This document shows, in pieces, positions 3,495 to 39,706 of a stretch of 64,000 bases of DNA. The notes under the pieces are model-generated. The model was not told the DNA's origin, did no database searches, and was given only the letters and a program-made list of their open reading frames with translations. The DNA lies in the NCBI GenBank assembly GCA_021767785.1, contig JAASSR010000001.1, forward strand, positions 7,745-71,744. The letters run 5' to 3'. This DNA comes from Methanolobus sp. (GTDB lineage Archaea; Halobacteriota; Methanosarcinia; Methanosarcinales; Methanosarcinaceae). Positions within the stretch are counted from its first letter, which is position 1. Every line of letters begins with the position of its first letter. The translations under genes and the position numbers were made by a program.

Positions 3495-4667
3495 ATGTTC
3501 GAGTTGAAAATAGCACTGAGACACATAAGCGCACGAAAGCGTCTTACTTTTTTTGCAGTATTTGCAGTAGCTCTGGCCATAGCTGTCATCGTAGTTCTCA
3601 TGTCAATGATGAGCGGATTTACTGAAGAACTCATTGATTCCACGGTGGAGAATTCACCTCATATAGTTATCAGTTCTTCCGATCAGCAAGAGGATTATGT
3701 TCATTTCTACAATTATTACTCACGGCAAATAGCAACAATAAATGGTGTGGAGGCAGTATCTCCCGTATTTGTGGGTCAGGCTGCCATAAGTCACAAGGAC
3801 AATGCGGAAGGAGTTAATCTGAACGGTATTGATCCCGTCTCAGAAGATAATGTGATGCGTATATCCGATGACATTGTTTCAGGAAACCTGTTCGATCTTG
3901 GAAGAAGCAACAATGGTATTGTTATCGGTGATAAACTTGCAGAAGATCTTGAAGTTGCGAAGGGGGAGAACGTTGATGTAGTTATGCCTGGTTTCGGTTC
4001 AAGGTCATTCAAGGTGATAGCCGTATTCGACAGTGGAACCTCCAGTGATGAAAGTGTTGCTTACATACGCTTTGATTCGGCTCTGAATTTCTTTGAGGAG
4101 AACGGAGTTGCCAGTAAGATCAATGTAAGAGTGGCGGATCCTTTCCAGGCAGATGCTATTGCCACTTCCCTGGAGCAGCAGGATACAGGACTTGACGCTG
4201 TAAGCTGGATAGAGACTAACAGCGAGATACTTGATCTTATCAACACTCAGGTTGTTATAGTCTGGCTTTATTACGGTCTTATATACATGATAGCAGGTTT
4301 TGGAATTGCCAATACCCTTTTCACGGTTGTCATGGACAAGAAAAAAGAAATTGGTATGCTTATGGCCATGGGTGCTTCCAGGCACAACATCACAATGATA
4401 TTCCTGTTCGAATCACTTATTCTCGGAACCATGGGTGTTCTTCTTGGTTGTCTGCTGGGGTATGTTGCATCCACAGGGCTTGCTTCTTATCAGATAGACC
4501 TGCCTGCAGAAATGTATTTCGGGCTCACAACGCTTCCTCTTAAGACCGATCTTATGAACTATGTCTATGCAATCATATTCTCATTCCTTATCAATGTAGT
4601 TGCAGGTGTTTATCCTGCAAGAAAGGCAGCCAAGCTTGATCCTGTGGAAGCCATAGAAAGTGCATGA
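3495..4667 (+). CDS. ABC transporter permease, FtsX family (LolC/E-like)
   Basis: 390 aa; ALRHISARKR plus N-terminal TM, large extracytoplasmic domain, C-terminal 3-TM bundle with GMLMAMGASR and YPARKAAKLDPVEAI. Confidence 0.85.
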   Translation: MFELKIALRHISARKRLTFFAVFAVALAIAVIVVLMSMMSGFTEELIDSTVENSPHIVISSSDQQEDYVHFYNYYSRQIATINGVEAVSPVFVGQAAISHKDNAEGVNLNGIDPVSEDNVMRISDDIVSGNLFDLGRSNNGIVIGDKLAEDLEVAKGENVDVVMPGFGSRSFKVIAVFDSGTSSDESVAYIRFDSALNFFEENGVASKINVRVADPFQADAIATSLEQQDTGLDAVSWIETNSEILDLINTQVVIVWLYYGLIYMIAGFGIANTLFTVVMDKKKEIGMLMAMGASRHNITMIFLFESLILGTMGVLLGCLLGYVASTGLASYQIDLPAEMYFGLTTLPLKTDLMNYVYAIIFSFLINVVAGVYPARKAAKLDPVEAIESA

Positions 4668-4902
4668 TAATTTTGTGGCTATAAGCTTTATTTTTTAAAC
4701 TCCGTTCTGTCTAATTAAAAGAAGGATGTTTGTTCGTATGTATGCGAAAAGTATTTATTCTCTGAAGTAGTTTGTATGTTTGCGAACGGGTCTGTTACTT
4801 AGTACCTCTCCAATACACTCCAATGTCACCATACCTGTGCATTCACCCCTTTGCCCGTTCGCATCCCCTATGTTTTTTATAAAAGCGTCCTAATTAAGGT
4901 GC

Positions 4903-5319
4903 ATGAAGATTGTCATTGAGACACCTAAGTATAGTTTTTTTAAATATCAAAGTCAAGGTTCTTTTTTTGTAAAGGAATTTCTCTCTCCTATACCAACTAT
5001 ATTCAATTACGGTTTTATTGCAGGAAGTCTTGCAGAAGATGGCATGGAAAAAGACATAGTTGTCATAGGTGACCGTATGCCTCAGGGTTCTGTTCTTGAA
5101 TTATCGAAAACTGACGGTATTGTGAAGTTCATAGATGACTCCATAGAAGACAACAAGGAAATAATTTGTCTGGGTGGTTATTACTCAAAATCTCTTTTTT
5201 ACTTCTATTTCCATATATATGCCATGTTCAAGATAATGTATTATCTGATTCTCAAAAGAAAATTAGCATACTGCAGATTTCTGGGTATATCATGGTATAT
5301 TGATCAAGTCCCGGAGTAA
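4903..5319 (+). CDS. Divergent, shortened family-I inorganic pyrophosphatase-like protein
   Basis: 138 aa; MKIVIETPKYS..KY, NYGFIAGSLAEDG..DIVVIG and KFIDDSIEDNKEI align with PPase blocks, but several acidic ligands are substituted and the C-terminus is short and hydrophobic. Confidence 0.45.
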   Translation: MKIVIETPKYSFFKYQSQGSFFVKEFLSPIPTIFNYGFIAGSLAEDGMEKDIVVIGDRMPQGSVLELSKTDGIVKFIDDSIEDNKEIICLGGYYSKSLFYFYFHIYAMFKIMYYLILKRKLAYCRFLGISWYIDQVPE

Positions 5320-5361
5320 AAGCTTGGAATTGATCCAAATGTTTTTTTCTTTCGAAGAGTC

Positions 5362-6528
5362 TCACCTTGTGGATATTGCTTCCACGGGATCAAGGCCTGC
5401 AGCTCTTTGTGCCGGATATATTCCTGCAATGAGGTTTAACAAAAAGACTATTGTTATTATTGCCATTACATCTTTAACTCTAACGAGCACGGGGATTGCC
5501 TCAAGACCATAAATATCTTCCGGAAGTGGGTAACTACCTATTGATAATGCCAGAGCAACACCTGCAGCAGTTCCAAAAACTGCTCCTGCAAGACCAAGAA
5601 TGCCACTTTCAACAAGAAAAATGAACCTGATATTGGATTTTGTAGCACCCATTGCAAGCAGAATTCCTATCTCTTTTACTTTTCCCATTACCACCATGTT
5701 CAATGTACTCACCACACCGAAAGATGCAATAAGAAGTATGAATCCAAGTGTTACATTGTTCGATACAGTTTCAATGGCAATAGTCCTCAATATTTCAGGA
5801 TTGTTCTCTGTCCAACCCGCAGCGTTATAACCATTGTCTTCTATTATCTGTGCGATCTCTCTGTCCCTGTTAAAATCATCTATTCTCAGTGATATGCCAT
5901 TTATGACATCTTCGGTATCATAGAAATCCTGTGCAGTGCTAAGTGATACATATGTGAGACTTTCATCAAGTGGTGTTCCGGTATCATATATTGCTATGAC
6001 TTTCAATGAAACAGGATTAGCATTCGGGAAGGAGACCTCCACATTGTCTCCTATCTCAAGCTCCATATCTTCTGCAAACTTATCCCCTACAATGATACTT
6101 CTCTCTGAATATGTTAGTCCGTTATAGTCACCTTTTATAATATCTTTTTCAGTATGAGCAACAGCGTCTTCCTGTTGGGGAATTATTCCCTTGATAACTG
6201 CGTTTTTCGTATTATCCCTGAATTTGAACGAAGCTTCTCCGGTCAGGTAAGGAGATGATGCAATAACGCCGTCTATATTATTTATTTTGTTGACGATATT
6301 CTTGTAGAGATGTATGTACTCTTCACCTTCCTGTGGTGAAACCACAACATGAGGTAGATTATCCACGGTTTTATCATAAAGTTCCTGTGTGAATCCTGCC
6401 ATAAAGGATTGGGATACCATCAGTATCATAACAGCTATTCCGATGGCTGCGATCGAGAGAATTGTCTGTCTTTTTCTTGCTTTTATATGACGCAGTGCAA
6501 TGAATAATTCATATCGCATCGATGACAC
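5362..6528 (-). CDS. ABC transporter permease, FtsX family (LolC/E-like)
   Basis: 388 aa; ALRHIKARKRQT plus TM, extracytoplasmic domain, GILLAMGATKSNI and YPAQRAAGLDPVEAI C-terminal signature. Confidence 0.85.
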   Translation of the reverse strand: MSSMRYELFIALRHIKARKRQTILSIAAIGIAVMILMVSQSFMAGFTQELYDKTVDNLPHVVVSPQEGEEYIHLYKNIVNKINNIDGVIASSPYLTGEASFKFRDNTKNAVIKGIIPQQEDAVAHTEKDIIKGDYNGLTYSERSIIVGDKFAEDMELEIGDNVEVSFPNANPVSLKVIAIYDTGTPLDESLTYVSLSTAQDFYDTEDVINGISLRIDDFNRDREIAQIIEDNGYNAAGWTENNPEILRTIAIETVSNNVTLGFILLIASFGVVSTLNMVVMGKVKEIGILLAMGATKSNIRFIFLVESGILGLAGAVFGTAAGVALALSIGSYPLPEDIYGLEAIPVLVRVKDVMAIITIVFLLNLIAGIYPAQRAAGLDPVEAISTR

Positions 6529-6537
6529 CTTTCAGTG

Positions 6538-7644
6538 TTATTTCTGCCTGAACACCATTGCAGTAATTAGAATTATCATCAGGGCAACAGAGAACAGGAA
6601 TCCAGGCGTTTGCTCTGTGTTCTGGGTATCTGGAGTACCTGTCTGGTTGACGGATGGTTCGTAATCTGATTCTATAATGCTTTCTTCTATATCCAGTACA
6701 TCTCCGTCGTTCCCTATTACTTCGATCACAAGCCCGTATTCACCGGTGGTTAGACGTTTGTCCCATATGGTTTCAACGGTTTCATCATCCCCGTTAAGGA
6801 TTACTGGTGAATTCTCAGTAACGGATTCGATGATGGTTTCTTCGTTTCCTTCCAATTTTGAAACTGTGAATCTGACAGAACCTTTGAATGGCACCTGGGA
6901 TATACCGTCAACAGTAGCACTTGCCCCTATGTCATCTTCGTAGGTATCACTGATAAATACATCATCCTGTGCAGTGAAATCTTCTGTCAGTGCGATATAG
7001 TTAACAGATGGAGAATACAGTTTGACCTTTATCCGTGCACTGTAATCTTTGTTATTTTCAAGGAGTACGTTCCAGTCTTCGCTTATTTCCACAGGTTGCG
7101 TGTGTACTGAGATTTTCTTATCAATTCCTGAATAAATAACATCTGATCCTTCAAGGAGCATGTATTCCAGATCAACAAGTACTGCTTCCTGTGGTGTTAT
7201 CATTACACTGAAACCCTGTGAGTTCGATACGAGATCATGGACTTTTACTCTGGGTATAATCTGCCTTCCATTAACGAAATTGTATGTGTTTTCATAAATG
7301 ACACAATTATTTTTAGAGATCAGACTATTGATGGTATATTTTCCATCCCCTTTGTCATCAGTGTCCCATCTGAATGCTTTGGTTATATCTGCATCCGGCT
7401 GTATGTTCTCTATTAAAAAAGTTCTGGTGTCCAGTATATTGCTTTCATGTTCCAGTTCCATCCTCAGTTCCAGCCCTGTAACTTCCTCCGGGCTGTGTAA
7501 AGTAATGTCACATGTCTTAAGGTCAGAGTAAATATCTGCAATACTGACATCATAAGCATCGGGTGAACAATCAAGTGCATAAGAAGGAACTGTGAGTGAA
7601 ATTATCAGTATAGTAATTGTCAGGGACAAAAAAGCGGATCTCAT
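6538..7644 (-). CDS. Secreted acidic surface protein with PGF-CTERM-type sorting signal
   Basis: Signal peptide MRSAFLSLTITILIISLTVPSYA; Thr/Pro/Gln-rich linker followed by PGFLFSVALMIILITAMVFRQK at the C-terminus. Confidence 0.6.
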   Translation of the reverse strand: MRSAFLSLTITILIISLTVPSYALDCSPDAYDVSIADIYSDLKTCDITLHSPEEVTGLELRMELEHESNILDTRTFLIENIQPDADITKAFRWDTDDKGDGKYTINSLISKNNCVIYENTYNFVNGRQIIPRVKVHDLVSNSQGFSVMITPQEAVLVDLEYMLLEGSDVIYSGIDKKISVHTQPVEISEDWNVLLENNKDYSARIKVKLYSPSVNYIALTEDFTAQDDVFISDTYEDDIGASATVDGISQVPFKGSVRFTVSKLEGNEETIIESVTENSPVILNGDDETVETIWDKRLTTGEYGLVIEVIGNDGDVLDIEESIIESDYEPSVNQTGTPDTQNTEQTPGFLFSVALMIILITAMVFRQK

Positions 7645-7734
7645 ATCATGGCTCCTGTATTTAAATTAAATTATTTTTGATACTATTTATAGCAATCTGT
7701 GAAACAATATATTTATGAATCCGACAGTTTTGCA

Positions 7735-8922
7735 TCATTCATACCTGAGCGCATCCAGGGGTTTCATTCTTGAAGCCTTCCATGCAGGGTACATCCCTCC
7801 AATGAGGCTTGTTGCAATACCAAAGAAAAAGCCTTCCATCACATAGAACATACTGGAAAGTGTAAGGAGATATGAGGCGTTCTTAAAGACCAGAGCCATA
7901 ATGATATACCCCCCTCCAAGAGTCAGTAGTGCTCCTGCACTGCTGGCTATAAGTCCCAGGAACAATGCCTCGAGCAGGAACATTTTCAATATATCCTTTC
8001 TGGAAGCGCCAACGGCTTTCATGATACCTATCTCTTTTGTACGTTCCATTGTGGACATGAGCATTACATTGAGTATGCTCACACCTGCAACGAGCAATGA
8101 TATGGAACCTATTCCCATTAAGAAGAGCGAAATGGAACCGAACACCTGATCCAGATTTTCAGTAATTGAGTTTGTGGCAAAGACGGTAACAAGTTCCTCT
8201 TTTTTGTTTATGCGCTCCTCTATCTCATCTGCAGTAGAATCTATCTCATCTATATCTTTAACAACCACAATTACCTGATCATAACCTTCATCAGCATCAG
8301 GATATAGCTTCTCATACATTTCTGATGAAGTAAAAACTCCACTGTCGGTATTAATATCAAATCCAAGCCCTCTCTCTTTGAGTATACCGACCACTCTCAG
8401 CTTTGTTTCATCTATCTCGATTTTCTTGCCGGTTGCAAGCTCAAGATTTTCCGCAACACTTGAACCCACCACGCAATCAGTGGAGCCGGGTTTGAAAAAA
8501 CGTCCGTCTTCAAGCTCCACAAGCTTTTCAAGCCCTTCTTTTTCAATATCATAGACCGAAATATATGACTGGACCTCAGCTCCGCTCTTCCTGTATTCTA
8601 TTATCTCGCCACTGGATGATACCGGAATTATGCTTTCTATATTCCCTACCTTTTCCATCTGATCTATCTGTCTGTGGGTTATGGAATCTTCCCCCGGCGC
8701 AGGAGATACTATGAGCTTGTCTCCTATATCTGCAAAGGAATCGGTGACTGACAGTTTCAGGCTGTTACCCAAAATTCCCATGGATGATATGGCAATAACT
8801 CCAATGATGATTCCAATAGCTGCAAGTATGGTGCGGATGGACTGTCTTTTCAGGTTTCTTTTTGCCAGCTCGGCATACATATTGTTGCTGAGCATTGAGA
8901 TGATCTCTTCTGTAATATTCAT
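7735..8922 (-). CDS. ABC transporter permease, FtsX/MacB type
   Basis: 395 aa; one N-terminal TM, about 230-aa external domain, GIMKAVGASRKDI and YPAWKASRMKPLDALRYE; 4-nt overlap with the upstream ATPase gene. Confidence 0.85.
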   Translation of the reverse strand: MNITEEIISMLSNNMYAELAKRNLKRQSIRTILAAIGIIIGVIAISSMGILGNSLKLSVTDSFADIGDKLIVSPAPGEDSITHRQIDQMEKVGNIESIIPVSSSGEIIEYRKSGAEVQSYISVYDIEKEGLEKLVELEDGRFFKPGSTDCVVGSSVAENLELATGKKIEIDETKLRVVGILKERGLGFDINTDSGVFTSSEMYEKLYPDADEGYDQVIVVVKDIDEIDSTADEIEERINKKEELVTVFATNSITENLDQVFGSISLFLMGIGSISLLVAGVSILNVMLMSTMERTKEIGIMKAVGASRKDILKMFLLEALFLGLIASSAGALLTLGGGYIIMALVFKNASYLLTLSSMFYVMEGFFFGIATSLIGGMYPAWKASRMKPLDALRYE

Positions 8923-9629
8923 CCGATGATCTCCCCGTCCTGTATCCTGATAGTCGTATGAGAATAATTTTCCAGCTCAGGATCGTGTGTTACAACTATC
9001 ACGGTTGTACCGGAAGAATTCAATTCTTCGAGCAGTTTCATGATGTTATGTCCTGTCTTCGTGTCCAGATTTCCTGTTGGTTCGTCAGCAAGCAGAATCG
9101 GTGGCCGGTTTGCCAGTGCCCTTGCAATTGCAACCCTCTGTTGCTGACCCCCTGACATCTCATTGGGTTTGTGACGTGCATATTCAAGTGGCAGGTCGGC
9201 TTTTTTAAGCATCATAAGAGCTTTTTTCCTTCTCTTACGTGGAGATTCCCCGTTGAATATCATGGGTATTTCAACGTTTTCGATTGCTGTAAGAGTTGGT
9301 ATCAGGTTGAACTGCTGGAAAATAAAACCTATATTGTTCCTTCTTATAGCTGTAAGGCCATCGTCATCCAGTTTTGACAGATCGACATTGTTTACTTTTA
9401 CCCTACCGGATGTGGGCAGGTCAAGGCATCCTATCATATTCAAAAGGGTACTCTTTCCGGAACCGGATGATCCCATTATGGTAACAAAATCTCCTTCTTT
9501 AATTGCAATGCTTACTCCTTTAAGTGCATAGATCCTGTTTTTTCCGAGAGTATATATGCGACTAACATCCTGCAACTGTACAATAGGATGCGTTGAACGT
9601 TGAGATTCTGGCATGTAAGCACCGTTCAT
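8919..9629 (-). CDS. ABC transporter ATP-binding protein (MacB/LolD/FtsE clade)
   Basis: Walker A GSSGSGKST, signature MSGGQQQRVAIARAL, Walker [14 protein letters not shown]-loop VTHD. Confidence 0.9.
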   Translation of the reverse strand: MNGAYMPESQRSTHPIVQLQDVSRIYTLGKNRIYALKGVSIAIKEGDFVTIMGSSGSGKSTLLNMIGCLDLPTSGRVKVNNVDLSKLDDDGLTAIRRNNIGFIFQQFNLIPTLTAIENVEIPMIFNGESPRKRRKKALMMLKKADLPLEYARHKPNEMSGGQQQRVAIARALANRPPILLADEPTGNLDTKTGHNIMKLLEELNSSGTTVIVVTHDPELENYSHTTIRIQDGEIIG

Positions 9630-10879
9630 TCCAGGAGATAATCCTCTTCAAGGAAATCTTCATCTTCTTCCTTTTCTTCCTCATCCCTGCGTTTTTTCCA
9701 CGAGTAAGCTATCAAAGCCACCACAGCAATTGCAACTATACCTGCCACGATCCAGGTTCCTGTGGAGCTTCCCTCCTCTTCATTATCTGAATGGATGACT
9801 CCGGATTCCAGAGATATTTCCTGTGAAATCGCAGTATATGTATTGTCAGGGTCCCTGAATTCAATGAGTACAGGTATTGAAGTGATATTTTTTGATGTGA
9901 TACGGGCGCTGAGTTCGAAACTGCTGAAATCATCGGCTTCCAGGGTTCCTATGAAATAATTGGCATAGGGTTGTATGGATTCAATACCTTCCATATCATC
10001 TATTGATACAAGTACGTTCTTTGCGTCGGTAATTCCGAAATTATTCAGGTCACCTGAAATAGTATGTCTGGTTCCACTGCTCTCTATCTCAATACCAGTG
10101 AATACAAGTGGTGATTGTCTTATGATCGTGATATCCTTGACTTCTGTTTCTGAACTGTGAAGGTTGTCTCCGTTGAAATAGGAAACTGAGAATGATACAT
10201 TGCTGTATCCTTCCTCACAGAACATGCTGTTCAGGGTGAATGTAGCAGTGGATTTGTTACCCTGTGGAATACTGCCTACAAAGTAATCCGAAGGACTGAA
10301 TGTCATGTCTTCAGCATAAGGAGTTACTATTACACTTGTTACATCGTTAGGTCTTCTGTTCACTACGTCCACGCTCACAGAAGATACTTCGTTCATCAGA
10401 GTTCCGGGGACGTTGGACATTATCACCTTTACATTCCTGTCATCAACTTTGACAGGTATGCGGTAATTGAGGTCGTACATGTTGCTGCCTCCCACTATGA
10501 TGAGATCTACAAAATGTACTCCTGTATCAGCGCTCTCTTTTACCTTTACATTGAAAGTGAGTTTAAGAGTGTCTCCCGGACCAAGCAGTCCCACATCGGT
10601 ATAACTCCTGTCGATTATTTCCAGGTTGCTGTTACCATCAAGGCTTGCACTGGCGATGTAGGCATTCATATCCAGTGTTTCATCATCTTCTTCTACATAT
10701 ATCTCGCCTGTTGCCATATTCTCAAGAGTGACTGTGATGGTTCCCATATCACCGGGCATAAAGACCTCCGGCTCGATCTCGTAATCAAGGGTAAGTGTGG
10801 GTCTGATCTCCGTAGTTGCAGAACCGCTGAATGAGAATGTTGCCAGGAGGAACATGGCCAATACAATTGCTTTGATCAT
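9626..10879 (-). CDS. COG1361/CARDB-like single-pass surface beta-sandwich protein (module A)
   Basis: 417 aa; signal peptide, repeated beta-rich segments (EPEVFMPGDMGTITVTLEN), C-terminal TM WIVAGIVAIAVVALIAYSW and acidic tail. Confidence 0.6.
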   Translation of the reverse strand: MIKAIVLAMFLLATFSFSGSATTEIRPTLTLDYEIEPEVFMPGDMGTITVTLENMATGEIYVEEDDETLDMNAYIASASLDGNSNLEIIDRSYTDVGLLGPGDTLKLTFNVKVKESADTGVHFVDLIIVGGSNMYDLNYRIPVKVDDRNVKVIMSNVPGTLMNEVSSVSVDVVNRRPNDVTSVIVTPYAEDMTFSPSDYFVGSIPQGNKSTATFTLNSMFCEEGYSNVSFSVSYFNGDNLHSSETEVKDITIIRQSPLVFTGIEIESSGTRHTISGDLNNFGITDAKNVLVSIDDMEGIESIQPYANYFIGTLEADDFSSFELSARITSKNITSIPVLIEFRDPDNTYTAISQEISLESGVIHSDNEEEGSSTGTWIVAGIVAIAVVALIAYSWKKRRDEEEKEEDEDFLEEDYLLE

Positions 10880-10888
10880 AATTTTACC

Positions 10889-11521
10889 TTATATATTAAT
10901 TAGTTTCAAACTGTACACCGAGTAGAGTATATAGATGAGTATTGGAACTCCTACAGTGATCAAAGCATTTTTGAAACTCAGATTTCTGGCATACATGATC
11001 CCGAATATCCATATATTAGCACTCCAGAGTGTAAATATTATGCCTATAATTCCGGCGATCTTCATGGAAGGGTCAGATACGAGTATTTCCTGTATGGTTT
11101 GCGGGTCTATGGAACTGAAATCAATATTCGAAAACATCTTGTTTGTGTAATAAAGGCTAATAAGGGAACTGGCTATACTCGGTATGAATCCATAGGATAC
11201 GAACTGCATAACTCTTTTGAAATCTCCTTCACCATTAAACAATAAAGATATTATATAGAATACCAGGCTGTACATTACCCACCCTATTATAACACCTATT
11301 ATCCCGCCAATAATACCTATAGCTGCACCGATCCCTGCAAAAGTGGCTGCTTCTTGAGGCATTGTTTTCATTATCTGTGCTGTCACCATATAAGCGCTTA
11401 TGGCACTTACAATTGCCATAATGGTCATGATGATTAGTGGTGTTTTCCACTCGACCTTCTCATTGATCTTTTTTCTGAAAAACCCATTTGGGTCTGTTAA
11501 TACTTCCAGCATAATTTCCAC
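10889..11521 (-). CDS. Yip1-domain-like integral membrane protein
   Basis: 210 aa; soluble N-terminus LTDPNGFFRKK followed by five hydrophobic helices; first gene of the minus-strand ABC operon. Confidence 0.5.
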   Translation of the reverse strand: MEIMLEVLTDPNGFFRKKINEKVEWKTPLIIMTIMAIVSAISAYMVTAQIMKTMPQEAATFAGIGAAIGIIGGIIGVIIGWVMYSLVFYIISLLFNGEGDFKRVMQFVSYGFIPSIASSLISLYYTNKMFSNIDFSSIDPQTIQEILVSDPSMKIAGIIGIIFTLWSANIWIFGIMYARNLSFKNALITVGVPILIYILYSVYSLKLINI

Positions 11522-11694
11522 ATCCTTCCTTTAAGTTCATATATCTATAACTTTCAATATTCAAATCTGTCGATCTATAGTCGAATATTGGAAGTATCTA
11601 TGTATATTTATACTTTGTTGTTTCGATCGATATTAGTATTGAAAATCTGTTCTGGTTCCTACTAGGCAGAATTTTTGCCGTTCTGCAACGAACC

Positions 11695-11704
11695 TTTTTA
11701 TAAG
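11695..11704 (+). promoter_or_regulatory. TATA-box-like element upstream of ABC module B
   Basis: TTTTTATAAG about 50-95 nt upstream of the candidate starts (11757 GTG / 11799 GTG) of the ATPase gene. Confidence 0.3.
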
Positions 11705-11756
11705 TTCAGACCAAAATAAACCCAAAACATAAAAAAAAGATGTCTTTAGATTGTAA

Positions 11757-12506
11757 GTGGGGTTCAACGTGAAAACGCTTTCAAAAGACATACCCAATGT
11801 GGGGTTTGTCAATTCGGGCAATAATGGCAATGATGTTCCTGTTATTGAGCTTATAAAGCTTTGTAAGAGCTATCATGTAGGGGATATGGATGTTCCCATA
11901 CTCAAAAGTATAGATCTCAGGATCATGAGTGGTGAATTTGTTGCTATAATGGGTCCTTCTGGCTCAGGGAAAAGCACTTTAATGAATATGATAGGTTGCC
12001 TTGACAGACCCAACTGCGGAAAGGTAATCCTTATGGGTAAGGATGTGAATACTCTTACCGACCCGGAACTTGCAAAACTGCGAGGTCTTGAAATAGGTTT
12101 TGTTTTCCAGAACTTTAACCTGGTTCCACGACTCACAACACTCCAGAACATCGAACTTCCTACTTATGCAAATAAAAAAGCCGGAGTAGATGCCAGAAAC
12201 AAAGCTCAGGAGCTTGTGGAAATGGTGGGGCTTAAAGAGCGTATGAACTACAAACCCTCGGAAATGTCAGGAGGACAGCAACAGAGGGTTGCAATTGCAA
12301 GGGCGTTGATTAATGATCCTTCCCTTATTCTTGCCGATGAGCCCACAGGTAATCTTGATTCTGTGACTGGTGAGGAGATCATGGGTATATTTTCCGATCT
12401 GAATAAAAAAGGAAGGACAATAGTTATGATCACACATGATCCTGATCTTGCAGAGTATGCTGACAGGATAGTATATCTTAAGGACGGAATTATAGGTAGC
12501 AACTAA
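11757..12506 (+). CDS. ABC transporter ATP-binding protein (MacB/LolD clade), module B
   Basis: Walker [40 protein letters not shown]; start uncertain (GTG 11757 or in-frame GTG 11799). Confidence 0.9.
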   Translation: MGFNVKTLSKDIPNVGFVNSGNNGNDVPVIELIKLCKSYHVGDMDVPILKSIDLRIMSGEFVAIMGPSGSGKSTLMNMIGCLDRPNCGKVILMGKDVNTLTDPELAKLRGLEIGFVFQNFNLVPRLTTLQNIELPTYANKKAGVDARNKAQELVEMVGLKERMNYKPSEMSGGQQQRVAIARALINDPSLILADEPTGNLDSVTGEEIMGIFSDLNKKGRTIVMITHDPDLAEYADRIVYLKDGIIGSN

Positions 12507-12527
12507 AGGAAAAAAAGAGGAAATATT

Positions 12528-13760
12528 ATGTTGGGGAAATATAAAACGGTTCTATATATCGCCGTTGTGTTATTGTTTTTATTTCTTTTGCCGTTGAACG
12601 CATCCGCTGCTGATGGCGCGGATCTGAGGGTCAGCATTCTTAAATATGACCCTGTCCCTGCAGAGATAGGTGAGTATGTCAGTGTCTGGGTCAAAGTGGA
12701 AAATCTGGGTTATGCAAAGGCTGATGACCTTTCCATAAGGATGGTTCCTGAATATCCTTTTAGCATTGACAGTGCAGAAAATGCGGAGGTGAATGTCGGT
12801 ATATTGACACCTGATAATGCTGCGGTTCACGAATTCAGACTTTATACTGATCCCGGTGCAAAGCAGGGTACAGGGACCATTGAAGTGTGGTATCAGGAAG
12901 ATTCCGGTGGTACATGGTTCAAGAAAGAATTCGATCTCAGGGTTGGTTCTGATTCTTTTGACAGTAAAGGTACCATGGAACTTGCAGAGGATCCTGTCAA
13001 AGAACCCGAGGTCTTTATGCCCGGGGATACCGGCACCATTTCTTTTACACTCCAGAACAGTGCTTCGGCTTATACAGTAACTATTGACGGTGAACAGTAC
13101 GATACCAATGCCAGGGTCCAGTCAGCTTCACTTCAGGGTGTGGAAGGAATAAAAGTAACAACGGAAACATATTATGGAAATGGTGTAATCGGACCCGGTG
13201 AGTCCATAGACCTGACTTATAATCTTGAGGTCGATGAATCGATACCTGACGGAACGTATTATCTCACATTTTCAACTGTTGGTAGTTCTCATTCATACAA
13301 CAGTAACTGGAGAATACCACTAAAGGTTGATTCTTCATCCGTAAGGGTCATTCCTTCAAAACCACTTGCACTTGAGAATGGAGAAGGGACACTAGAATTC
13401 GATGTTGCCAATATTCATCCCAACGCACTTTCTTCTGTAAGTGTAAAACTGGAAGCCGAGGGAGTTGAGTTCTCTCCTTCGGAGTATTTCATCGGTTCTA
13501 TGGATTCAGATGAACTTTTTACCATCGAAGTGGATGCTAAAGCCGAGTCAGAGGATATCTCATTTCCCCTCGATCTTTTGATCTATGCGGATTACAGGAA
13601 CGGTCTGAATGAGCATACAGAACAGGTGGATGTCCGCCAGTTGCAACATCATGTAGTTGAAAACGAGAACGATTATGGCATCTACATAGCAGCTGCTCTT
13701 CTGATCGTTGTGGCGGCAGGGGCCTATGTTTTTTACAGGCGCAGAAAAGAAAATGAGTGA
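12528..13760 (+). CDS. COG1361/CARDB-like single-pass surface protein (module B)
   Basis: 410 aa; signal peptide, EPEVFMPGDTGTISFTLQN block shared with modules A and C, C-terminal TM IYIAAALLIVVAAGAYVFY plus RRRKENE. Confidence 0.6.
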   Translation: MLGKYKTVLYIAVVLLFLFLLPLNASAADGADLRVSILKYDPVPAEIGEYVSVWVKVENLGYAKADDLSIRMVPEYPFSIDSAENAEVNVGILTPDNAAVHEFRLYTDPGAKQGTGTIEVWYQEDSGGTWFKKEFDLRVGSDSFDSKGTMELAEDPVKEPEVFMPGDTGTISFTLQNSASAYTVTIDGEQYDTNARVQSASLQGVEGIKVTTETYYGNGVIGPGESIDLTYNLEVDESIPDGTYYLTFSTVGSSHSYNSNWRIPLKVDSSSVRVIPSKPLALENGEGTLEFDVANIHPNALSSVSVKLEAEGVEFSPSEYFIGSMDSDELFTIEVDAKAESEDISFPLDLLIYADYRNGLNEHTEQVDVRQLQHHVVENENDYGIYIAAALLIVVAAGAYVFYRRRKENE

Positions 13761-13798
13761 AGACTAAATTTCAAGGATATATGTCAGGATAAGCCTTT

Positions 13799-15013
13799 AT
13801 GTTAAGTCCGGCTCAGGCTATAAGGATCTCAGTGGGAAGTATTGGAAGCTCCAAGTTAAGGTCCGCTCTAACGACTCTTGGAATCATCATTGGAGTAGCG
13901 GCAGTTATAGCCAATGTTTCACTTGGCGCCAGTTTCAATCAGTATTTCGATGATGAGATCGGAGCTGTGGGTTCGAATTTCATAGTAATCTACAGCCAGA
14001 ACATTGATGTGTTCTTTGATCGGGAACTGGAGATCATAAGGAATACGCCGGGTGTTGAGGGAGTTTCACCAATAAATCAGCAGATGGCGCAGGTAACTTA
14101 CATGTCTACGTCGCGGCAGATAGATATTCAGGGGGTTACAGCGGATTATGATGACGTTGCTAATTTCGAAATGGATTCTGGAACGTTCCTTACTGATAAG
14201 GATCAATATGTTGCTGTTATAGGTGCTGAAGTTGCTTATGAAAAGTTCGATAAGAAGATATCTATAAAGAATCCCATAGATATAACTTTCAGGAGAGAGG
14301 ACGGCGGGGTTGTTACCCGTACTTTTATCGTAAAAGGTGTTATTCAGGATCCAAACACGACCTTTGCACAGACTGGAGTTGAACCTGAGATACGTGTGTT
14401 CATCCCTATTGAGATCATGAACGACATACTGGGAAAAGATGATTATGGAGGCTTTTTTGTAAAGGCTCAGAGTCTTGAAATTGTCAGGGAGACAGGAGAT
14501 GAGATAGACAAACGCCTGGCACGCAGTCTTGGTGTTCCAAGCAGGGAACTTGAGAATGATGATACAAAACCTTATGTCCTGTTCGATCAGCTCGAAATTC
14601 TTGAGCAGACAGATCAACTATCCTCTGCCCTTACGTCACTTTTAACATCAGTAGCTCTTATTTCACTGGTTGTTGGCTCCATCGGAATAATGAACATCAT
14701 GCTTGTGACAGTTGCAGAAAGAACCAGAGAGATAGGCCTTTTGAAATCACTGGGATTCAGTGAAAAGGATGTTCTGGCACTTTTTATTATAGAATCCATG
14801 ATAGTTGGGCTTATTGGTGGTATATTCGGTACTGCTCTTGGAATAGGTGCTGCTCACATTGCAAATGGCATTCTGGATGTTCCGGATGTATTTCCTACAA
14901 GTCTCATAGTTCTCGGATTCCTTGTATCCATACTTGTGGGATTGGTGGCAGGGGTATATCCTGCAAGGAAGGCTGCCCGTATGAATCCTGTTGAGGCTTT
15001 GAGGAAGGAGTGA
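13799..15013 (+). CDS. ABC transporter permease, FtsX/MacB type (module B, first copy)
   Basis: 404 aa; [62 protein letters not shown]. Confidence 0.85.
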
Positions 15014-16230
15014 ACATGATAGACCTTAAACATGCATTTGTCATTGCACTCGGAAGTATCAGCAGTGCAAAGCTCCGTTCAACCCTCACGGCTTTAGGCA
15101 TCATAATTGGTGTTGCAGCAGTGGTGGCCAACGTATCACTTGGCGCCAGTTTCAACCAGTATTTCACAGATGAACTTGGTTCCCTTGGTTCGAATTTCAT
15201 AATCATATACAGTCAGGATGTCAATATTTTCTATGACAATGAGCTGGAACTGATAAAGAACACTCCCGGTATAGAAGGAGTTTCTCCATTTAACCAGCAA
15301 ACAGCGGCGGTTACGTATCTGTCTTCTACAAGGCAGATAGATGTTCAGGGGGTATCGGAAGATGCCCAGTACATCTCTAACCTGCTGGTAGAAGAGGGTA
15401 ATTTCCTTACTGATAAGGATAAGTATGTGGCTGTTCTGGGTAAAGAGATTGCAGAGGAGAAGTTCGATAAGGATATTTCCATTAAGAACTATGTTGACAT
15501 TACCATAAAACGTCAGGATGGTACAAGTGTTACCCGCAAGTTCAGGGTAAAAGGAATACTCCAGAGTGAAGACAATACTTTTGTACAGGGTGGCCCGGAC
15601 CGTGATGTCACCATATACGTCCCTATCTCTACGCTGAATGAGATGTTGAACGTTACTGATTATGGTGGTTTTTCCGCAAATACGGGGAGTGCCGAATCTG
15701 TCAGGGAAGTATCCGATGAGGTGGACAAGCGTCTTGCAAGATCGCTTGGAGTTCCCACAAGGGATCTGGATAATGATGATGCTAAACCTTACAGGATATT
15801 TAACCAGGCCGAGATAATAGAACAACTGAATACGCTCTCTAACTCATTGACAATACTTATCACTCTAATAGCTCTTGTGGCCCTTCTAGTGGGATCTATA
15901 GGTATAATGAACATTATGCTTGTGACAGTTACCGAAAGAACCCGTGAGATCGGTCTGTTGAAATCGCTGGGTTACACAAAACCAAGTATTATTTTTCTTT
16001 TCATAACGGAATCAATAATAGTAGGTGTGATTGGTGGAATACTCGGCACACTTATGGGTCTGGTTGGTTCCTATATTGTTGAGGTTTACCTGAACATACC
16101 TCCGGTGTTCCCGTTCTATCTGATATTCCTGGGTTTTTTCATATCGGTGCTGGTGGGTCTGATCGCCGGGGTATATCCTGCCAACAAGGCAGCTAATCTT
16201 GATCCTGTAGAAGCTCTAAGGCATGAATAA
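15010..16230 (+). CDS. ABC transporter permease, FtsX/MacB type (module B, second copy)
   Basis: 406 aa paralog of the preceding gene; GTG 15010 overlaps the upstream stop, alternative ATG at 15016; [18 protein letters not shown]. Confidence 0.85.
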
Positions 16231-16392
16231 AGTCAAATCTACCTGTTTCTGATCAGCTGATTTATTGTGTCTTTATCTTTGATTCCAATTTTATACTCGA
16301 ACCTGTCTATTCATAGAAAGGTTTAAGTATTTATACTACATCATCGGACTTGACGATATATAGTCAAGTTGGTATATGTGAGGTAAATGTAA

Positions 16393-17097
16393 ATGGCTGG
16401 TAACAATTTGAATGTTCCGGATGGCAGGAATGTCATTGCCATCTCCGGTCTTAAGAAAAGCTATTTCCTTGGTGATATGGAAGTACCGATCCTGCACGGA
16501 ATCGATCTGAGTATCAAACGGGGAGAGTTCGTTGCGATAATGGGTCCTTCCGGATCAGGAAAAAGTACTCTGATGAATATGATAGGATGTCTGGATAGGC
16601 CCACAGGAGGAAAGGTTCTTCTAATGGGTAAAGACACAGGTTCTATCACTGATAACGAGCTTGCTGAACTACGTGGGTTTGAGATCGGCTTTGTTTTCCA
16701 GAATTTCAATCTCATCCCCAGGCTCAGTGCCTATGAAAATATAATGCTCCCTACATATTCCAATACAAAGCAGGGAATGGACACCTCCGGAAGAGCACGG
16801 GAGCTGTTGAAACTCGTGGGTCTGGATGACCGTATGGGTCACAGGCCATCGGAATTATCGGGAGGACAGAGACAAAGGGTTGCAATAGCAAGGTCTCTGA
16901 TCAATGATCCCTCTCTGATATTGGCAGATGAGCCTACCGGTAATCTTGACTCAAAGACCAGTGAAGAAATAATGGGGCTATTCTCAGACCTTCACAAAAA
17001 AGGTCGTACTATTGTAATGATCACACATGATCCGGAAATGGAACCATATGTGGACAGAGTAGTTCGCATCAAAGACGGATATATTGAAAATAATTAA
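16393..17097 (+). CDS. ABC transporter ATP-binding protein (MacB/LolD clade), module C
   Basis: [39 protein letters not shown]; close paralog of 11757..12506. Confidence 0.9.
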
Positions 17098-17109
17098 GGG
17101 TGGTTAAGA

Positions 17110-18345
17110 ATGAATTTAATTGGTGTTGTTAAAAGATCGTTTTATATCTTACTCAGTATCGCTTTGTTAAGTACTTCTTCCATGTTACCTGCATTAGCAG
17201 ATTCGGGCGCTACAATGAAGGTTGATATTATAGATTACGAACCTTTCCCCGCTCAGATAGGCGAATATGTAGATGTCCATGTCAAGATCGAGAACGTGGG
17301 CTATGGACGTGCTGATGCAGTTTCCTTAAAGATGGAGCCTGAATATCCGTTCTCTCTGGATTCTGCCGGCAATGCAGTGGAATTTATAGGAATTCTATCC
17401 CCTGATGATGCAGCGATACATGAATATCGTTTATATGTGGACGAGAACGCAAAGGTGGGTACAGGCACAGTAGATGTTTACTATCAGGTCCATGAGGGAG
17501 GATCATGGTATAAGTCCGCCTTTGATCTTAAGGTCGGTTCCAGTACATTTGACAGCAAGGGAACTATAGAACTGACAGAAATTACCTGTGATCCTGTGGT
17601 TTTCATGCCAGGGGACAGGGGGACTGTAAGTTTTACCCTTACAAACACAGCAACTGAGAACTCGATATCAATAGACGGTGAAGACTACGATACAAATGCG
17701 CGTGTACAGTCTGCAGTTCTTAAAGGTACCGACGGAATTGATGTTACAAGTGACAGCTATATAGGTTCCGGTGTGATAGGTCCTGGTGATTCTATAACAT
17801 TGAGTTACAATGTAGAACTGCAGGACGATGTAAGAGACGGAACTTACTATCTGGATCTCTCAATGGTCGGTAATTCCTATACCTATAACAGTAACTGGAG
17901 AATTCCGGTAAAGGTAGATTCTGCTGCTGTAAGGGTCATACCTTCAAAACCAATGGAATTTACTAATGGTGAAGGAACACTTGAATTCGATGTTGCTAAT
18001 ATGCATCCGAACTCGATAAGCTCTGTAAGTGTAAAACTGGAAGCGGAAGGAGTTGATTTCTCTCCGGAAGAATACTTTGTAGGCTCCATGGATTCCGATG
18101 AGCTCTTTACCATAGAAATAAAGGGTAAAACCGCGATTGAAGAAGTAGCAATACCTGTCACCATCACAGTTGATTACAGGAATGGCATAAATGAACACAG
18201 CACCGAGGTTGCGGTTCGTGAGATTGAACTTGTGAGTGAGGACGAAGGTGGCAACGAAAATCTTGCGGTAATAGGTGCCGGAGCCATTTTGTTGCTGGGT
18301 ATTCCTGCAGTTGTATTCATGAAACGCAGGAAACAGAACGACTAA
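17110..18345 (+). CDS. COG1361/CARDB-like single-pass surface protein (module C)
   Basis: 411 aa, collinear paralog of 12528..13760 (for example DPVVFMPGDRGTVSFTLTN; NSNWRIPVKVDSAAVRVIPSKP); C-terminal TM plus KRRKQND. Confidence 0.6.
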   Translation: MNLIGVVKRSFYILLSIALLSTSSMLPALADSGATMKVDIIDYEPFPAQIGEYVDVHVKIENVGYGRADAVSLKMEPEYPFSLDSAGNAVEFIGILSPDDAAIHEYRLYVDENAKVGTGTVDVYYQVHEGGSWYKSAFDLKVGSSTFDSKGTIELTEITCDPVVFMPGDRGTVSFTLTNTATENSISIDGEDYDTNARVQSAVLKGTDGIDVTSDSYIGSGVIGPGDSITLSYNVELQDDVRDGTYYLDLSMVGNSYTYNSNWRIPVKVDSAAVRVIPSKPMEFTNGEGTLEFDVANMHPNSISSVSVKLEAEGVDFSPEEYFVGSMDSDELFTIEIKGKTAIEEVAIPVTITVDYRNGINEHSTEVAVREIELVSEDEGGNENLAVIGAGAILLLGIPAVVFMKRRKQND

Positions 18346-18361
18346 ATTCCAGGGTGAAACC

Positions 18362-19576
18362 ATGCTGAGTCTGAAACATTCCTTCAGAATGGCTGTGGGA
18401 AGCATTAGCAGTTCTAAATTAAGATCTGCCCTGACAACACTTGGTATTGTCATAGGTGTGGCCGCCGTAATTGCCAATGTATCCCTGGGAGCCAGTTTCA
18501 ATCAGTACTTCTCTCAGGAAATAGGTTCTGTAGGAAACAATTTCATTATTATTGAAGGTAAGACCTCTAATTTGTTCCATGATAATGAAATGGAAGTCGT
18601 AAAAAACACCCCTGGTATTGTGGGTGTGTCTCCGCTGAGTCAGGAAGTCGCCGAAGTGAAATATATTTCCACCAAACGACAGATAGCTGTTCAGGGAGTT
18701 TCTGAAGACTATGAGGAAGTAGCTAACATTCAGATGGAGAGCGGGACGTTCATAGATGACAAAGACAAGTATATGGCGGTAATAGGACATGATGTCGCCT
18801 ATGAGAAGTTCGACCGTAAGATCTCCGATAAAAATACCATAGAACTCACATTTACAAGACCCAGTGGTGAGACAGTAACCAGACAATTTAAGGTAAAGGG
18901 AATTGTTGACAGTCCGGAGACAACGTTTGTTCAGAGTGGTATAGAACCTGATGAAAGGGTCTTCATACCTATATCTACAATGAATGAGATAATGGGTGAA
19001 GATTACTACTGGGGGTTCTTTGCAGCAGCAACCAGCCTTGAATCCATAGATAGTGTAACTGAAGAGCTGGATAAGAGACTTGCAAGGGATCTTGGAGTTC
19101 CTTTCAGGGATCTGGACAATGAAGATGCAAAACCGTATTCACTTATGAATCAGGGTGAGATACTTGAAGAAGTTGACCAGCTTTCAGGTGCTTTAGGCTC
19201 ATTGCTGACTTCTGTTGCCCTGATATCGCTTATTGTGGGTTCCATCGGAATTATGAATATCATGCTGGTCACAGTGACCGAGAGGACCGGAGAAATAGGG
19301 ATTATGAAATCCCTGGGATATAAGAACTATGAGGTTCTGTCCCTGTTCATGGTGGAATCCATAGTAGTGGGTCTTTTCGGTGGAGTACTGGGTATCATAC
19401 TCGGTGTGGTCGGTGCATATGTTGCGGACAGTGCAATGGGTTTGCCATATGTGTTCCCTGTTGATATGATACTGACAGGGATGCTGGTGTCTGTGATAGT
19501 AGGATTGCTTGCAGGTATATATCCTGCTAATAAAGCAGCAAGGATGAATCCTGTGGATGCTCTTCGACACGAATGA
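18362..19576 (+). CDS. ABC transporter permease, FtsX/MacB type (module C)
   Basis: 404 aa; [62 protein letters not shown]. Confidence 0.85.
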   Translation: MLSLKHSFRMAVGSISSSKLRSALTTLGIVIGVAAVIANVSLGASFNQYFSQEIGSVGNNFIIIEGKTSNLFHDNEMEVVKNTPGIVGVSPLSQEVAEVKYISTKRQIAVQGVSEDYEEVANIQMESGTFIDDKDKYMAVIGHDVAYEKFDRKISDKNTIELTFTRPSGETVTRQFKVKGIVDSPETTFVQSGIEPDERVFIPISTMNEIMGEDYYWGFFAAATSLESIDSVTEELDKRLARDLGVPFRDLDNEDAKPYSLMNQGEILEEVDQLSGALGSLLTSVALISLIVGSIGIMNIMLVTVTERTGEIGIMKSLGYKNYEVLSLFMVESIVVGLFGGVLGIILGVVGAYVADSAMGLPYVFPVDMILTGMLVSVIVGLLAGIYPANKAARMNPVDALRHE

Positions 19577-19998: not shown

Positions 19999-20619
19999 AT
20001 GGACACAAAAATACTTGATGTAGAAGCTGCACTTCGGGAATTCGTAAAAGTTGCTTTTGAAAAACAGACCTACATGAATATATTGTATCTGTTATTCTCA
20101 TTCCCCCTTGGAACAGCTTATTTTATATTTTTGGTTACAGGCCTCTCTTTAGGTTTTGGACTTCTTCTCATCTGGATAGGTATACCTGTTCTGTTGATTG
20201 TTTTCCTTGCCTGGTGGGAAATAGCGGCATTTGAGCGCCAGATGGCCATATGGTTTTTGGGGATTGATATTCCTTCTATGTCCCTGACACCCTTAAATGA
20301 AAAAAGTATCCTGGGTAGGTTTATTTACAGGCTTAAGAGCCCGGTTACATGGAAAGCCCTTTTATTCCTTATTGTTAAATTCCCGTTAGGCATCTTTTCA
20401 CTTGTGGCAATGGTAGTCCTTCTGGCAATGACAATGGGAATGATCTTTAATCCGTTGATCTATTTGACAGGTAACAGTCATGCAGCTACCTTGCAGGAAG
20501 CAATACTCATAGCAATTGCAGGTATTTTTGTGGGACTGGCGTCCATGCATGTGTTGAATCTCCTGGCGCATATCACAGGAAATTTTGCAAAAAGAATGCT
20601 TGGAGGTCATGAGACCTAA
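19999..20619 (+). CDS. Polytopic membrane protein resembling the putative-sensor domain family
   Basis: 206 aa; QTYMNILYLLFSFPLGTAYFIFLVTGLSLGFGLLLIWIGIPVLL followed by AAFERQMA, a pattern I recall from PF13796-like proteins. Confidence 0.4.
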   Translation: MDTKILDVEAALREFVKVAFEKQTYMNILYLLFSFPLGTAYFIFLVTGLSLGFGLLLIWIGIPVLLIVFLAWWEIAAFERQMAIWFLGIDIPSMSLTPLNEKSILGRFIYRLKSPVTWKALLFLIVKFPLGIFSLVAMVVLLAMTMGMIFNPLIYLTGNSHAATLQEAILIAIAGIFVGLASMHVLNLLAHITGNFAKRMLGGHET

Positions 20620-21046: not shown

Positions 21047-21562
21047 ATGCAGGCAGAAAACATTAGCGGAAAAATTCTTTCACTCATGGAAGAGAATCCG
21101 GATATTACAATAAAAGAGATCTCAGAGTCATTGTCAGTTTCCGAGGATCTGATTGAGGAAACCTTGAGAAAAATGTCTGATGCGCGCCAGAAGATTCTGA
21201 TAGTAGATGATGAGATGGATGCCCTGTTAGCTCTGAAAGTAGCTCTTGAAGCCGAAGGATATAATATAGTCGAAGCAAAAGATGGCTACGAAGCCATAGA
21301 TACGGCACATTCTGAAAATCCTGATGTAATACTGCTTGATCTTATGATTCCCGGAATAGATGGATTTGAAGTTTGCAGGCAACTTAAATCCGATCCCGTG
21401 TACAGTCATATTCCTGTGATCATGCTGACTGCACGTGGTGAGATTGACGATAAAGTAGAAGGGATCGAGCTTGGTGCGGATGATTATGTCACCAAACCAT
21501 TCAATCTGAAGGAACTGAAAGCACGTATAAAAATGATCCTGAGAAGAAATCAGGATGCATGA
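21047..21562 (+). CDS. Response regulator (REC domain) with N-terminal HTH-like extension
   Basis: KILIVDDE, LLDLMIPGIDG, PVIMLTA, KPF receiver motifs; the first 45 aa or so (ITIKEISESLSVSEDLIEETL) look like a small HTH. Confidence 0.85.
   Translation: MQAENISGKILSLMEENPDITIKEISESLSVSEDLIEETLRKMSDARQKILIVDDEMDALLALKVALEAEGYNIVEAKDGYEAIDTAHSENPDVILLDLMIPGIDGFEVCRQLKSDPVYSHIPVIMLTARGEIDDKVEGIELGADDYVTKPFNLKELKARIKMILRRNQDA

Positions 21563-37486: not shown

Positions 37487-39706
<2,220 letters not shown>

Follow-up and report, generated by a model that had tools for sequence, protein, structure and literature searches.

We describe a gene cluster of Methanolobus sp. that encodes three ATP-binding cassette (ABC) modules of the MacB type, each containing its own membrane-anchored surface protein. 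The cluster occupies positions 3495-19576 of the window, a 64,000-nt stretch of contig JAASSR010000001.1 to which all coordinates refer. Based on an open reading frame (ORF) map and on scans of the window proteins against Pfam and NCBIfam, which underlie the family calls, the 16-kb cluster contains six FtsX/MacB_PCD permeases, three ABC ATPases and three paralogues of the surface protein, for which we use the working name SURF (SURF-A, SURF-B and SURF-C). The SURF genes are strictly linked to ABC genes across the Methanosarcinales and in the distant homologues that we located. We propose that the modules are type VII ABC pumps serving envelope defence, in which SURF is an accessory subunit with immunoglobulin (Ig)-like domains that is not homologous to the bacterial adaptors, and we put the probability of this reading at about one half.

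Three transporter modules and their surface proteins

Modules B and C are encoded on the forward strand in the order ATPase, SURF, FtsX permease. In module B, the ATPase gene (11757-12506; 249 aa; Pfam ABC_tran, 2.3e-34) is separated by 21 nt from that of SURF-B (12528-13760; 410 aa), and two FtsX/MacB_PCD permeases follow, of 404 aa (permease 1, 13799-15013) and 406 aa (permease 2, 15010-16230), whose genes overlap by 4 nt. Module C consists of an ATPase of 234 aa (16393-17097; ABC_tran, 9.5e-35), SURF-C of 411 aa (17110-18345) after a gap of 12 nt, and a single permease of 404 aa (18362-19576; MacB_PCD, 8.2e-29; FtsX, 2.2e-22). Module A lies on the reverse strand and is headed by a Yip1-family protein of 210 aa (10889-11521; Pfam Yip1, 2.2e-28), followed by SURF-A (9626-10879; 417 aa), the ATPase (8919-9629; 236 aa; ABC_tran, 1.2e-34) and the permease (7735-8922; 395 aa; MacB_PCD, 4.5e-28; FtsX, 5.5e-21). 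The ATPase gene of module A overlaps both of its neighbours, SURF-A and the permease, by 4 nt. All SURF genes are intra-operon, lying between the ATPase and permease genes in modules B and C, and the overlaps or gaps measure 4-38 nt. The original prediction had placed the surface protein gene directly after the ATPase gene in all three modules; this describes modules B and C, and in module A the SURF gene is instead upstream of the ATPase gene. The Yip1 protein, which is polytopic by hydropathy, matches the NCBIfam model YknW_fam over its full length (3.9e-12, 46 bits; cut-off 110 bits).

All six permeases of the cluster carry a C-terminal FtsX domain (PF02687, E-values of 7.8e-16 to 5.1e-23) and a full-size MacB_PCD domain of ~200 aa (PF12704) that is matched nearly end to end, as expected from the original prediction of six FtsX-family permeases. 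Hydropathy profiles reveal one N-terminal transmembrane (TM) segment and a C-terminal cluster of TM segments, fitting the four-TM topology of type VII transporters. Module B permease 1 aligns over its full length with the TM and periplasmic domains of MacB in the PDB (5nik, 1e-35) and with Spr0695 (5xu1_M, 9e-33), and the external domain of YknZ (5f9q) is also a detectable relative of the module B permease. The two permeases of module B are 61% identical, and the tandem FtsX pair is kept in 42 modules as well as in distant operons of the PadR-associated and Woesearchaeota types described below. The two are likely heterodimer partners.

The Walker A, signature, Walker B and H-loop motifs are intact in the three ATPases. 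We scanned the module B ATPase directly, and those of modules A and C were assigned through their identity to it; on this basis, all three belong to the MacB/LolD clade, as had been predicted. The top NCBIfam matches of the module B ATPase are MacB, LolD, DarD (the darobactin exporter), a bacteriocin exporter and FtsE; for the ATPase and permease of module B taken together, they are MacB and the darobactin and bacteriocin exporters. In the PDB, the ATPase matches Spr0694 (5xu1_A, 1.3e-72), MJ0796 (1.8e-69) and MacB. Among the NCBIfam models, those for FtsX score only 19-44 bits against cut-offs of 225-255, and FtsE scores 214 against 265, which places the proteins outside the FtsEX equivalogs; the only Pfam match to LptF_LptG is at a spurious level. 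Judged by sequence, the permeases and ATPases of the cluster are clearly MacB-type, type VII ABC proteins. The true start of the module B ATPase is uncertain: the annotated GTG start adds about 13-15 residues before Walker A compared with the ATPases of modules A and C (11757-11840, forward strand). The real start may be downstream, and a canonical-looking TTTTTATAAG box is found at about 11696-11705.

In each SURF paralogue, a hydrophobic segment resembling a signal peptide is present at the N-terminus, and one TM helix near the C-terminus leads into a basic tail (RRRK in SURF-B). These features, identified by alignment and hydropathy, agree with the earlier description of three paralogues of about 410 aa. 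An AlphaFold2 (AF2) model of SURF-B, built with 24 homologues (pLDDT 81), comprises a signal helix, three beta-sandwich domains at about 33-139, 150-267 and 272-375, and a TM helix at 382-409, giving substance to the several beta-sandwich segments that had been suggested from the sequence. SURF-A lacks the N-terminal domain 1 of SURF-B and SURF-C and has ~100 extra residues before the TM helix, possibly a further domain. The block (E/D)P(E/V)VFMPGD.GT(I/V)(T/S)(V/F)TL.N, recognized in the original prediction, is present in all three proteins. It is specific to Methanosarcinales, and only its G166 and N177 are nearly invariant in the broad family alignment; our impression, and it is only that, is that the block may represent a repeated first hairpin of CARDB. 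When the three SURF domains were aligned with each other, no convincing signal of an internal repeat was detected.

The closest homologues of SURF are Methanolobus proteins with 80% identity that carry the NCBI name ‘COG1361 S-layer family protein’, and it is through these named relatives that we assign SURF to the COG1361/CARDB type. The Pfam CARDB matches themselves, in SURF-B and SURF-C, are weak (27 and 23 bits, with a cut-off of 22.7), and no single stretch passes alone. A Foldseek search of the PDB with SURF-B returned only generic tandem Ig-like arrays (ciliary ASH-type domains, integrin calf domains, the MG domains of alpha-2-macroglobulin and RbmA), and a SURF profile search of PDB sequences found no relative. 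Pfam, NCBIfam and Foldseek revealed no catalytic domain, and the sequences contain no sortase-type, PGF-CTERM or lipobox signal. We considered SURF as a membrane fusion protein (MFP) and ruled this out, given an all-beta, Ig-like ectodomain, a C-terminal TM helix and no match to the HlyD (MFP) family in either Pfam or NCBIfam. The family is large: at 50% identity it comprises 1294 representative clusters, most of them of full-length, ~400-aa proteins. In Methanosarcinales, the major surface-layer (S-layer) protein comes from another family (DUF1608), and thus the name ‘S-layer family protein’ should not be read as a function.

Conserved linkage of SURF and ABC genes

To place the cluster in a wider context, we scanned one genome per species with the closer SURF alignment, which returned 70 loci, all from Methanosarcinales, and annotated their six-frame ORFs with hidden Markov models (HMMs) built from the proteins of the window. 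Not one of the 125 SURF genes in these loci is without an ABC neighbour, either ATPase or FtsX. The order ATPase, SURF, FtsX accounts for 81 genes and Yip1, SURF, ATPase for 25. A further 10 follow an ATPase gene with no FtsX gene within 300 nt, mostly as the second copy in Methanosarcina, two precede FtsX without an ATPase ORF having been called ahead of them, and seven lie at a contig edge. Across Methanolobus, the three-module cluster is syntenic, including the gene of a PF13796 protein downstream. The original prediction had staked its case on a conserved neighbourhood in Methanosarcinales, and this is what the census revealed.

Beyond Methanosarcinales, we looked up 11 distant members through an all-against-all search of the family representatives and the contigs that encode them; the taxonomy of most of these loci comes from archaeal housekeeping neighbours only. 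At 22-37% identity, the 11 distant homologues all adjoin an ABC ATPase; except in L075, those on sufficiently long contigs also have an FtsX gene. A recurrent arrangement is PadR, ATPase, SURF and two FtsX genes (L073, the P0323 contigs and L079-L081), and the Woesearchaeota loci (L077/L078) have ATPase, SURF and two FtsX genes followed by MatE. Other arrangements are ATPase, SURF, two small ORFs and two FtsX genes (L074); SURF, ATPase and FtsX (L083); Yip1, SURF, ATPase and FtsX in Methanococcoides (L084); and ATPase and SURF at a contig end (L085). In L075, ATPase and SURF are followed by an HTH gene and one for a 456-aa protein to which no family was assigned, and at L076 the flanking sequence is too short to judge. 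One distant branch (P0145) carries the names Nanoarchaeota and Woesearchaeota (DPANN), and the order around SURF is kept at 25-30% identity in distant operons, including those with DPANN names. The fixed pairing that had been taken to mark a dedicated envelope machine is therefore supported by the 70 loci and by the distant homologues alike, and chance pairing is excluded by the same counts.

In locus L071 the order is SURF, an SdpI-domain gene, FtsX and ATPase; the gene between SURF and FtsX (7197-7838) encodes a membrane protein with DUF1648 and SdpI domains. SdpI serves in both immunity and signalling for the SDP toxin, against which YknWXYZ acts in Bacillus.

The components of a module diverge in concert, as judged from sequence identities. 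Modules B and C share 71% identity in the ATPase, 58% in SURF and 58-63% in FtsX, and module A is related to them by 47-48%, 41% (over about 225 residues) and 28-31%, respectively. Between orthologous modules, the identities of the different components correlate with r = 0.81-0.94 (41 modules). SURF evolves somewhat faster, with a mean identity of 63% against 74-76% for the transporter components in the same 41 modules. The number of paralogous sets per genome is three to four.

A type-A module can also be plasmid-borne, in a neighbourhood with a flavour of defence. On the 285-kb plasmid pMETHO01 of Methanomethylovorans hollandica (L082; NC_019972.1, 95131-99977) we identified a regulator, YIP1, a SURF-like gene, ATPase and permease in this order, with an IS1 transposase between Yip1 and SURF, the latter labelled ‘hypothetical protein’ in RefSeq. 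A SpoIIM-like gene is found 3 kb upstream of the module and a viperin-family gene downstream.

Other genes of the cluster and a promoter-like element

Two further permeases of the cluster form a LolC/E-like subfamily of their own (42% identity between them, 25-30% with the remaining four), and lolCE is the top NCBIfam match of both. The first, FtsX_3495 (3495-4667, forward strand; 390 aa; Pfam FtsX, 6e-20; MacB_PCD, 1.5e-17), is an orphan without an adjoining ATPase or SURF gene. It reaches 221 bits against TIGR02212 lolCE, below the cut-off of 362, and a Pfam search of the cluster region revealed no LolA-like gene, so that these proteins are not assigned to LolCDE. The second, FtsX_5362 (5362-6528, reverse strand; 388 aa), faces the first and likewise has no ATPase of its own. 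Between them, a 138-aa ORF (4903-5319, forward strand) matches the inorganic pyrophosphatase model at positions 1-90 of 153 only and may be a truncated gene or pseudogene.

FtsX_5362 is encoded 9 nt downstream of P368, a 368-aa anchored protein (6538-7644, reverse strand) that we consider a candidate fourth partner on the basis of its hydropathy and conserved FtsX neighbour. P368 has an N-terminal signal-like and a C-terminal hydrophobic segment, and its ectodomain is probably beta-rich: some orthologues show weak matches to E-set or Ig-type domains (TcfC, CopC and CARDB). An hhalign comparison of P368 with SURF gave a probability of only 21% for a relation between the two. The pair of P368 and a LolCE-like FtsX recurs in Methanohalophilus-type loci (L034, L037 and L041), where it adjoins a B-type module. 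This recurrence suggests that the P368-FtsX pair borrows the ATPase of its neighbour. The original prediction, which gave permeases, ATPases and surface proteins in their correct numbers, had overlooked both P368 and the Yip1/YknW-like gene.

Downstream of module C, a polytopic membrane protein of 206 aa (19999-20619, forward strand) belongs to PF13796, ‘Putative sensor’ (1.9e-35). A PF13796 protein follows the C-type order of ATPase, SURF and FtsX in about 25 loci, including Methanococcoides. In the window, its gene is succeeded by those of a response regulator with winged helix-turn-helix (wHTH) and REC domains (21047-21562, forward strand) and a dCache histidine kinase (21581-23320, forward strand). 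The PF13796 protein, regulator and kinase may constitute a sensing and regulatory arm of the pumps, comparable to that of Bce-type systems.

The region between the divergently oriented modules A and B (11522-11756) contains a promoter-like element, GTCGATCTATAGTCGA, with its core at 11571-11580. This core, CGATNTATAG, occurs three times in the window against an expected 0.42 (11571-11580 and 16354-16363 on the forward strand, and 12552-12561 on the reverse strand). Modules B and C each have one copy upstream, embedded in an extended element; the two elements, GTCGATCTATAGTCGAA and GACGATATATAGTCAAG, resemble each other, and GACGATATATAGTCAAG is a CTTGAC...GTCAAG palindrome around a TATA-like core. 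The third copy, antisense to SURF-B, falls inside the 5' end of that gene. In other Methanolobus genomes, the element likewise precedes modules of the B and C types, there reading ACnnGTCGATnTATAG, and the conserved element associated with the modules can also be written GTCGATnTATAG. The element could be a shared promoter, with a B recognition element (BRE) and TATA box, or an operator. Elsewhere in the window, GC content rises to 0.52 at 38001-40000 from about 0.40, and an Rfam scan of the whole window found no family at all, rRNA and tRNA included.

A candidate envelope pump and its alternatives

Type VII ABC proteins, which include MacAB-TolC, LolCDE, FtsEX, YknXYZ and BceAB, have no substrate path through the membrane; ATP drives a movement of their external domain, which works on material outside the membrane, and an external partner or client is involved in every case (PMC5985334, PMC8277102). 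The intra-operon placement of SURF, with its small gaps and overlaps, suits a stoichiometric subunit of such a machine. We infer that the parts form a complex in which SURF has an adaptor-like role. A module would comprise a cytoplasmic ATPase dimer and a dimer of four-TM FtsX permeases (hetero in module B, homo in module C) whose external Porter/Sabre domain is large, and SURF, as a type I single-pass protein anchored next to the permease through its C-terminal helix, would extend three Ig-like domains into the space below the S-layer. Binding and hydrolysis of ATP would move the external domain of the permease by mechanotransmission, and SURF may capture or guide material dislodged by the pump from the membrane's outer face, filling the place that HlyD-family adaptors (MacA, YknX and Spr0693) take in bacteria. 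The most likely cargo would be membrane-active peptides or lipophilic toxins, giving the modules a role in envelope defence and detoxification.

A close parallel is with YknWXYZ of Bacillus subtilis and B. amyloliquefaciens. This four-component pump, in which the Yip1-family protein YknW is an accessory, gives protection from the peptide toxin SDP (PMC5985334, PMC8277102). Module A has the same order of Yip1 protein, anchored accessory, LolD-type ATPase and FtsX/MacB_PCD permease, with SURF in the slot of the adaptor. Three of the four families match, although the Yip1 protein of module A scores well under the YknW_fam cut-off. The systems differ in that YknX is an HlyD-family MFP with an N-terminal anchor, whereas SURF is all-beta, Ig-like and anchored at its C-terminus; modules B and C have no Yip1, and the host is an archaeon without peptidoglycan. 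The SdpI-domain gene in a single distant SURF operon (L071) provides a further link to the Bacillus system. The original prediction left the function among surface-layer remodelling, peptide or toxin expulsion and extraction of surface-bound material. The PadR, SdpI and MatE neighbours in other lineages, together with the Yip1/YknW-like protein, tilt the function to toxin or peptide expulsion, and context thus favours a defence against such compounds.

Other known systems share some of these features. Among solved structures, MacAB-TolC and Spr0693-0694-0695 (5NIK, 5XU1) come closest to the ATPase and permease of module B and share their type VII architecture; as in Spr0694, the nucleotide-binding domain (NBD) is a separate protein here. 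Unlike them, the cluster contains neither an adaptor of the MacA or Spr0693 type nor an outer-membrane duct, and SURF would be the partner. The ABC machine LptB2FG-LptC offers an analogy and no more: there, substrate passes from the transporter to the beta-rich external domain of a single-pass accessory protein, but the machine is of ABC type VI and has a beta-jellyroll where SURF has Ig-like domains. Next to Spr0694, the solved structure closest to the module B ATPase is MJ0796 of Methanocaldococcus jannaschii, regarded as LolD/MacB-like and studied solely as an isolated NBD, and a literature search on its neighbours MJ0795 and MJ0797 found nothing.

Several observations weigh against a defence pump with SURF as its adaptor. 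The window contains no evident gene for a substrate, toxin or bacteriocin, PADLOC found no known defence family, and the PadR, SdpI and MatE contexts are hints that come from other lineages and not from the locus in the window. The SURF anchor is C-terminal, opposite to that of MFPs, and the protein has no alpha-hairpin or barrel domains; SURF cannot, therefore, work structurally like an MFP. Its TM helix displays no conserved motif in the alignments other than hydrophobicity and the basic tail. In addition, Makarova et al. (2015) interpreted related neighbourhoods as membrane remodelling (PMC5898192).

Alternatively, SURF may be the cargo, each MacB-type machine extracting its own paralogous anchored client for the surface or S-layer. 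The NCBI name of the SURF homologues would fit, as would the faster evolution of SURF, which is often seen in exposed surface proteins, and LolCDE is a precedent for a type VII ABC system that extracts anchored proteins from the outer leaflet with heterodimeric FtsX-type permeases and a LolD ATPase. The cluster even contains two LolCE-like FtsX paralogues, but their scores stay far below the lolCE cut-off (at best 221 against 362 bits), LolA and LolB are missing, and SURF has no lipobox or other of the sorting signals named above. There is strictly one SURF per module, translationally coupled and placed between the ATPase and permease genes, and this order persists at 25-30% identity in DPANN; these are traits of a subunit more than of a client, and we regard cargo as an unlikely role for SURF. 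We are similarly doubtful that the modules transport nothing and that SURF is a non-catalytic switch, as EnvC is, for an unlinked envelope enzyme acting in S-layer insertion, division or remodelling. FtsEX with EnvC, PcsB or CwlO does act through a dedicated extracytoplasmic partner that is not transported, SURF is devoid of a catalytic domain, and the proposal of Makarova et al. (2015) for related Yip1/SpoIIM/SalXY neighbourhoods is a role in membrane remodelling or division (PMC5898192). Against this, the permeases have a large, full-size MacB_PCD and align with MacB end to end, their FtsX matches are far below the cut-offs, and SURF has no coiled-coil, LytM or CHAP domain. The multiplicity of the modules, with three to four sets in a genome and a copy on a plasmid, fits accessory defence better than core morphogenesis, and the PadR, SdpI and MatE contexts point to detoxification.

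A membrane-remodelling or vesicle system centred on Yip1 and SpoIIM-like proteins, with the ABC proteins and the ‘S-layer protein’ peripheral to it, is considerably less probable still. Earlier work noted briefly, without characterizing them, neighbourhoods in which Yip1 (arCOG02054) and SpoIIM-like (arCOG01996) proteins occur with SalXY-family ABC transporters and ‘S-layer proteins’, and predicted a membrane-associated system for defence or remodelling (Makarova et al. 2014, PMC4158269; 2015, PMC5898192). For Archaeoglobi, Methanococci and Thermococci, the later paper, by Makarova, Galperin and Koonin, added the Yip1-family proteins and ‘S-layer proteins’ (PMC5898192). By their published descriptions, these neighbourhoods hold the same kinds of components (Yip1, SalXY, which is MacB-type, and predicted S-layer-like proteins), but they are centred on SpoIIM-like and small membrane proteins. 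A Yip1 gene does head module A, and the M. hollandica plasmid copy lies close to a SpoIIM-like gene. However, Yip1 is confined to modules of the A type (25 of the 125 SURF genes), neither Yip1 nor SpoIIM is present in the B, C or DPANN operons examined, and it is ATPase, SURF and FtsX that form the invariant core; in bacteria, moreover, YknW assists a pump of the MacB type and is not a vesicle factor (PMC5985334, PMC8277102). That ordinary drug-efflux operons merely happen to lie beside unrelated surface protein genes is scarcely credible: nothing beyond the generic annotation of the parts would recommend it, and it is contradicted by the SURF genes of all 70 loci, by the 11 linked distant homologues and by the concordant divergence of the paralogue types.

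Taking the pump as the preferred reading, we tentatively suggest that SURF may be a new, archaea-specific class of accessory that replaces the HlyD-type adaptor without being its homologue and connects the external domain of the pump with the sub-S-layer space, in an ancient and widespread form of envelope defence spanning Methanosarcinales and DPANN. In the accounts of Makarova et al. that we draw on, the strict core of ATPase, COG1361 protein and FtsX, its spread in Methanosarcinales and DPANN, the match to the YknWXYZ order and the placement of SURF in the adaptor slot had not been stated. Literature searches on COG1361, archaeal MacB, and Methanosarcina S-layer and ABC proteins found no functional study and nothing that links COG1361 to FtsX/MacB; the view that the triad is uncharacterised, with no substrate or function assigned, thus stands for the literature searched.

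To our knowledge, MacB-type machines are understood only in bacteria, each with a partner outside the membrane, such as MacA, EnvC or LolA. The locus and the census provide a strictly conserved candidate partner for the MacB-type machines of archaea, which have one membrane and an S-layer. Three natural paralogues and a variant in YknWXYZ order allow comparison, and the question is testable in tractable methanogens. The result would also correct the label ‘S-layer family protein’, for which function our analysis found no evidence. If the defence reading is true, these modules would represent a widespread means by which archaea, including the small-genome DPANN, cope with membrane-active antimicrobials.

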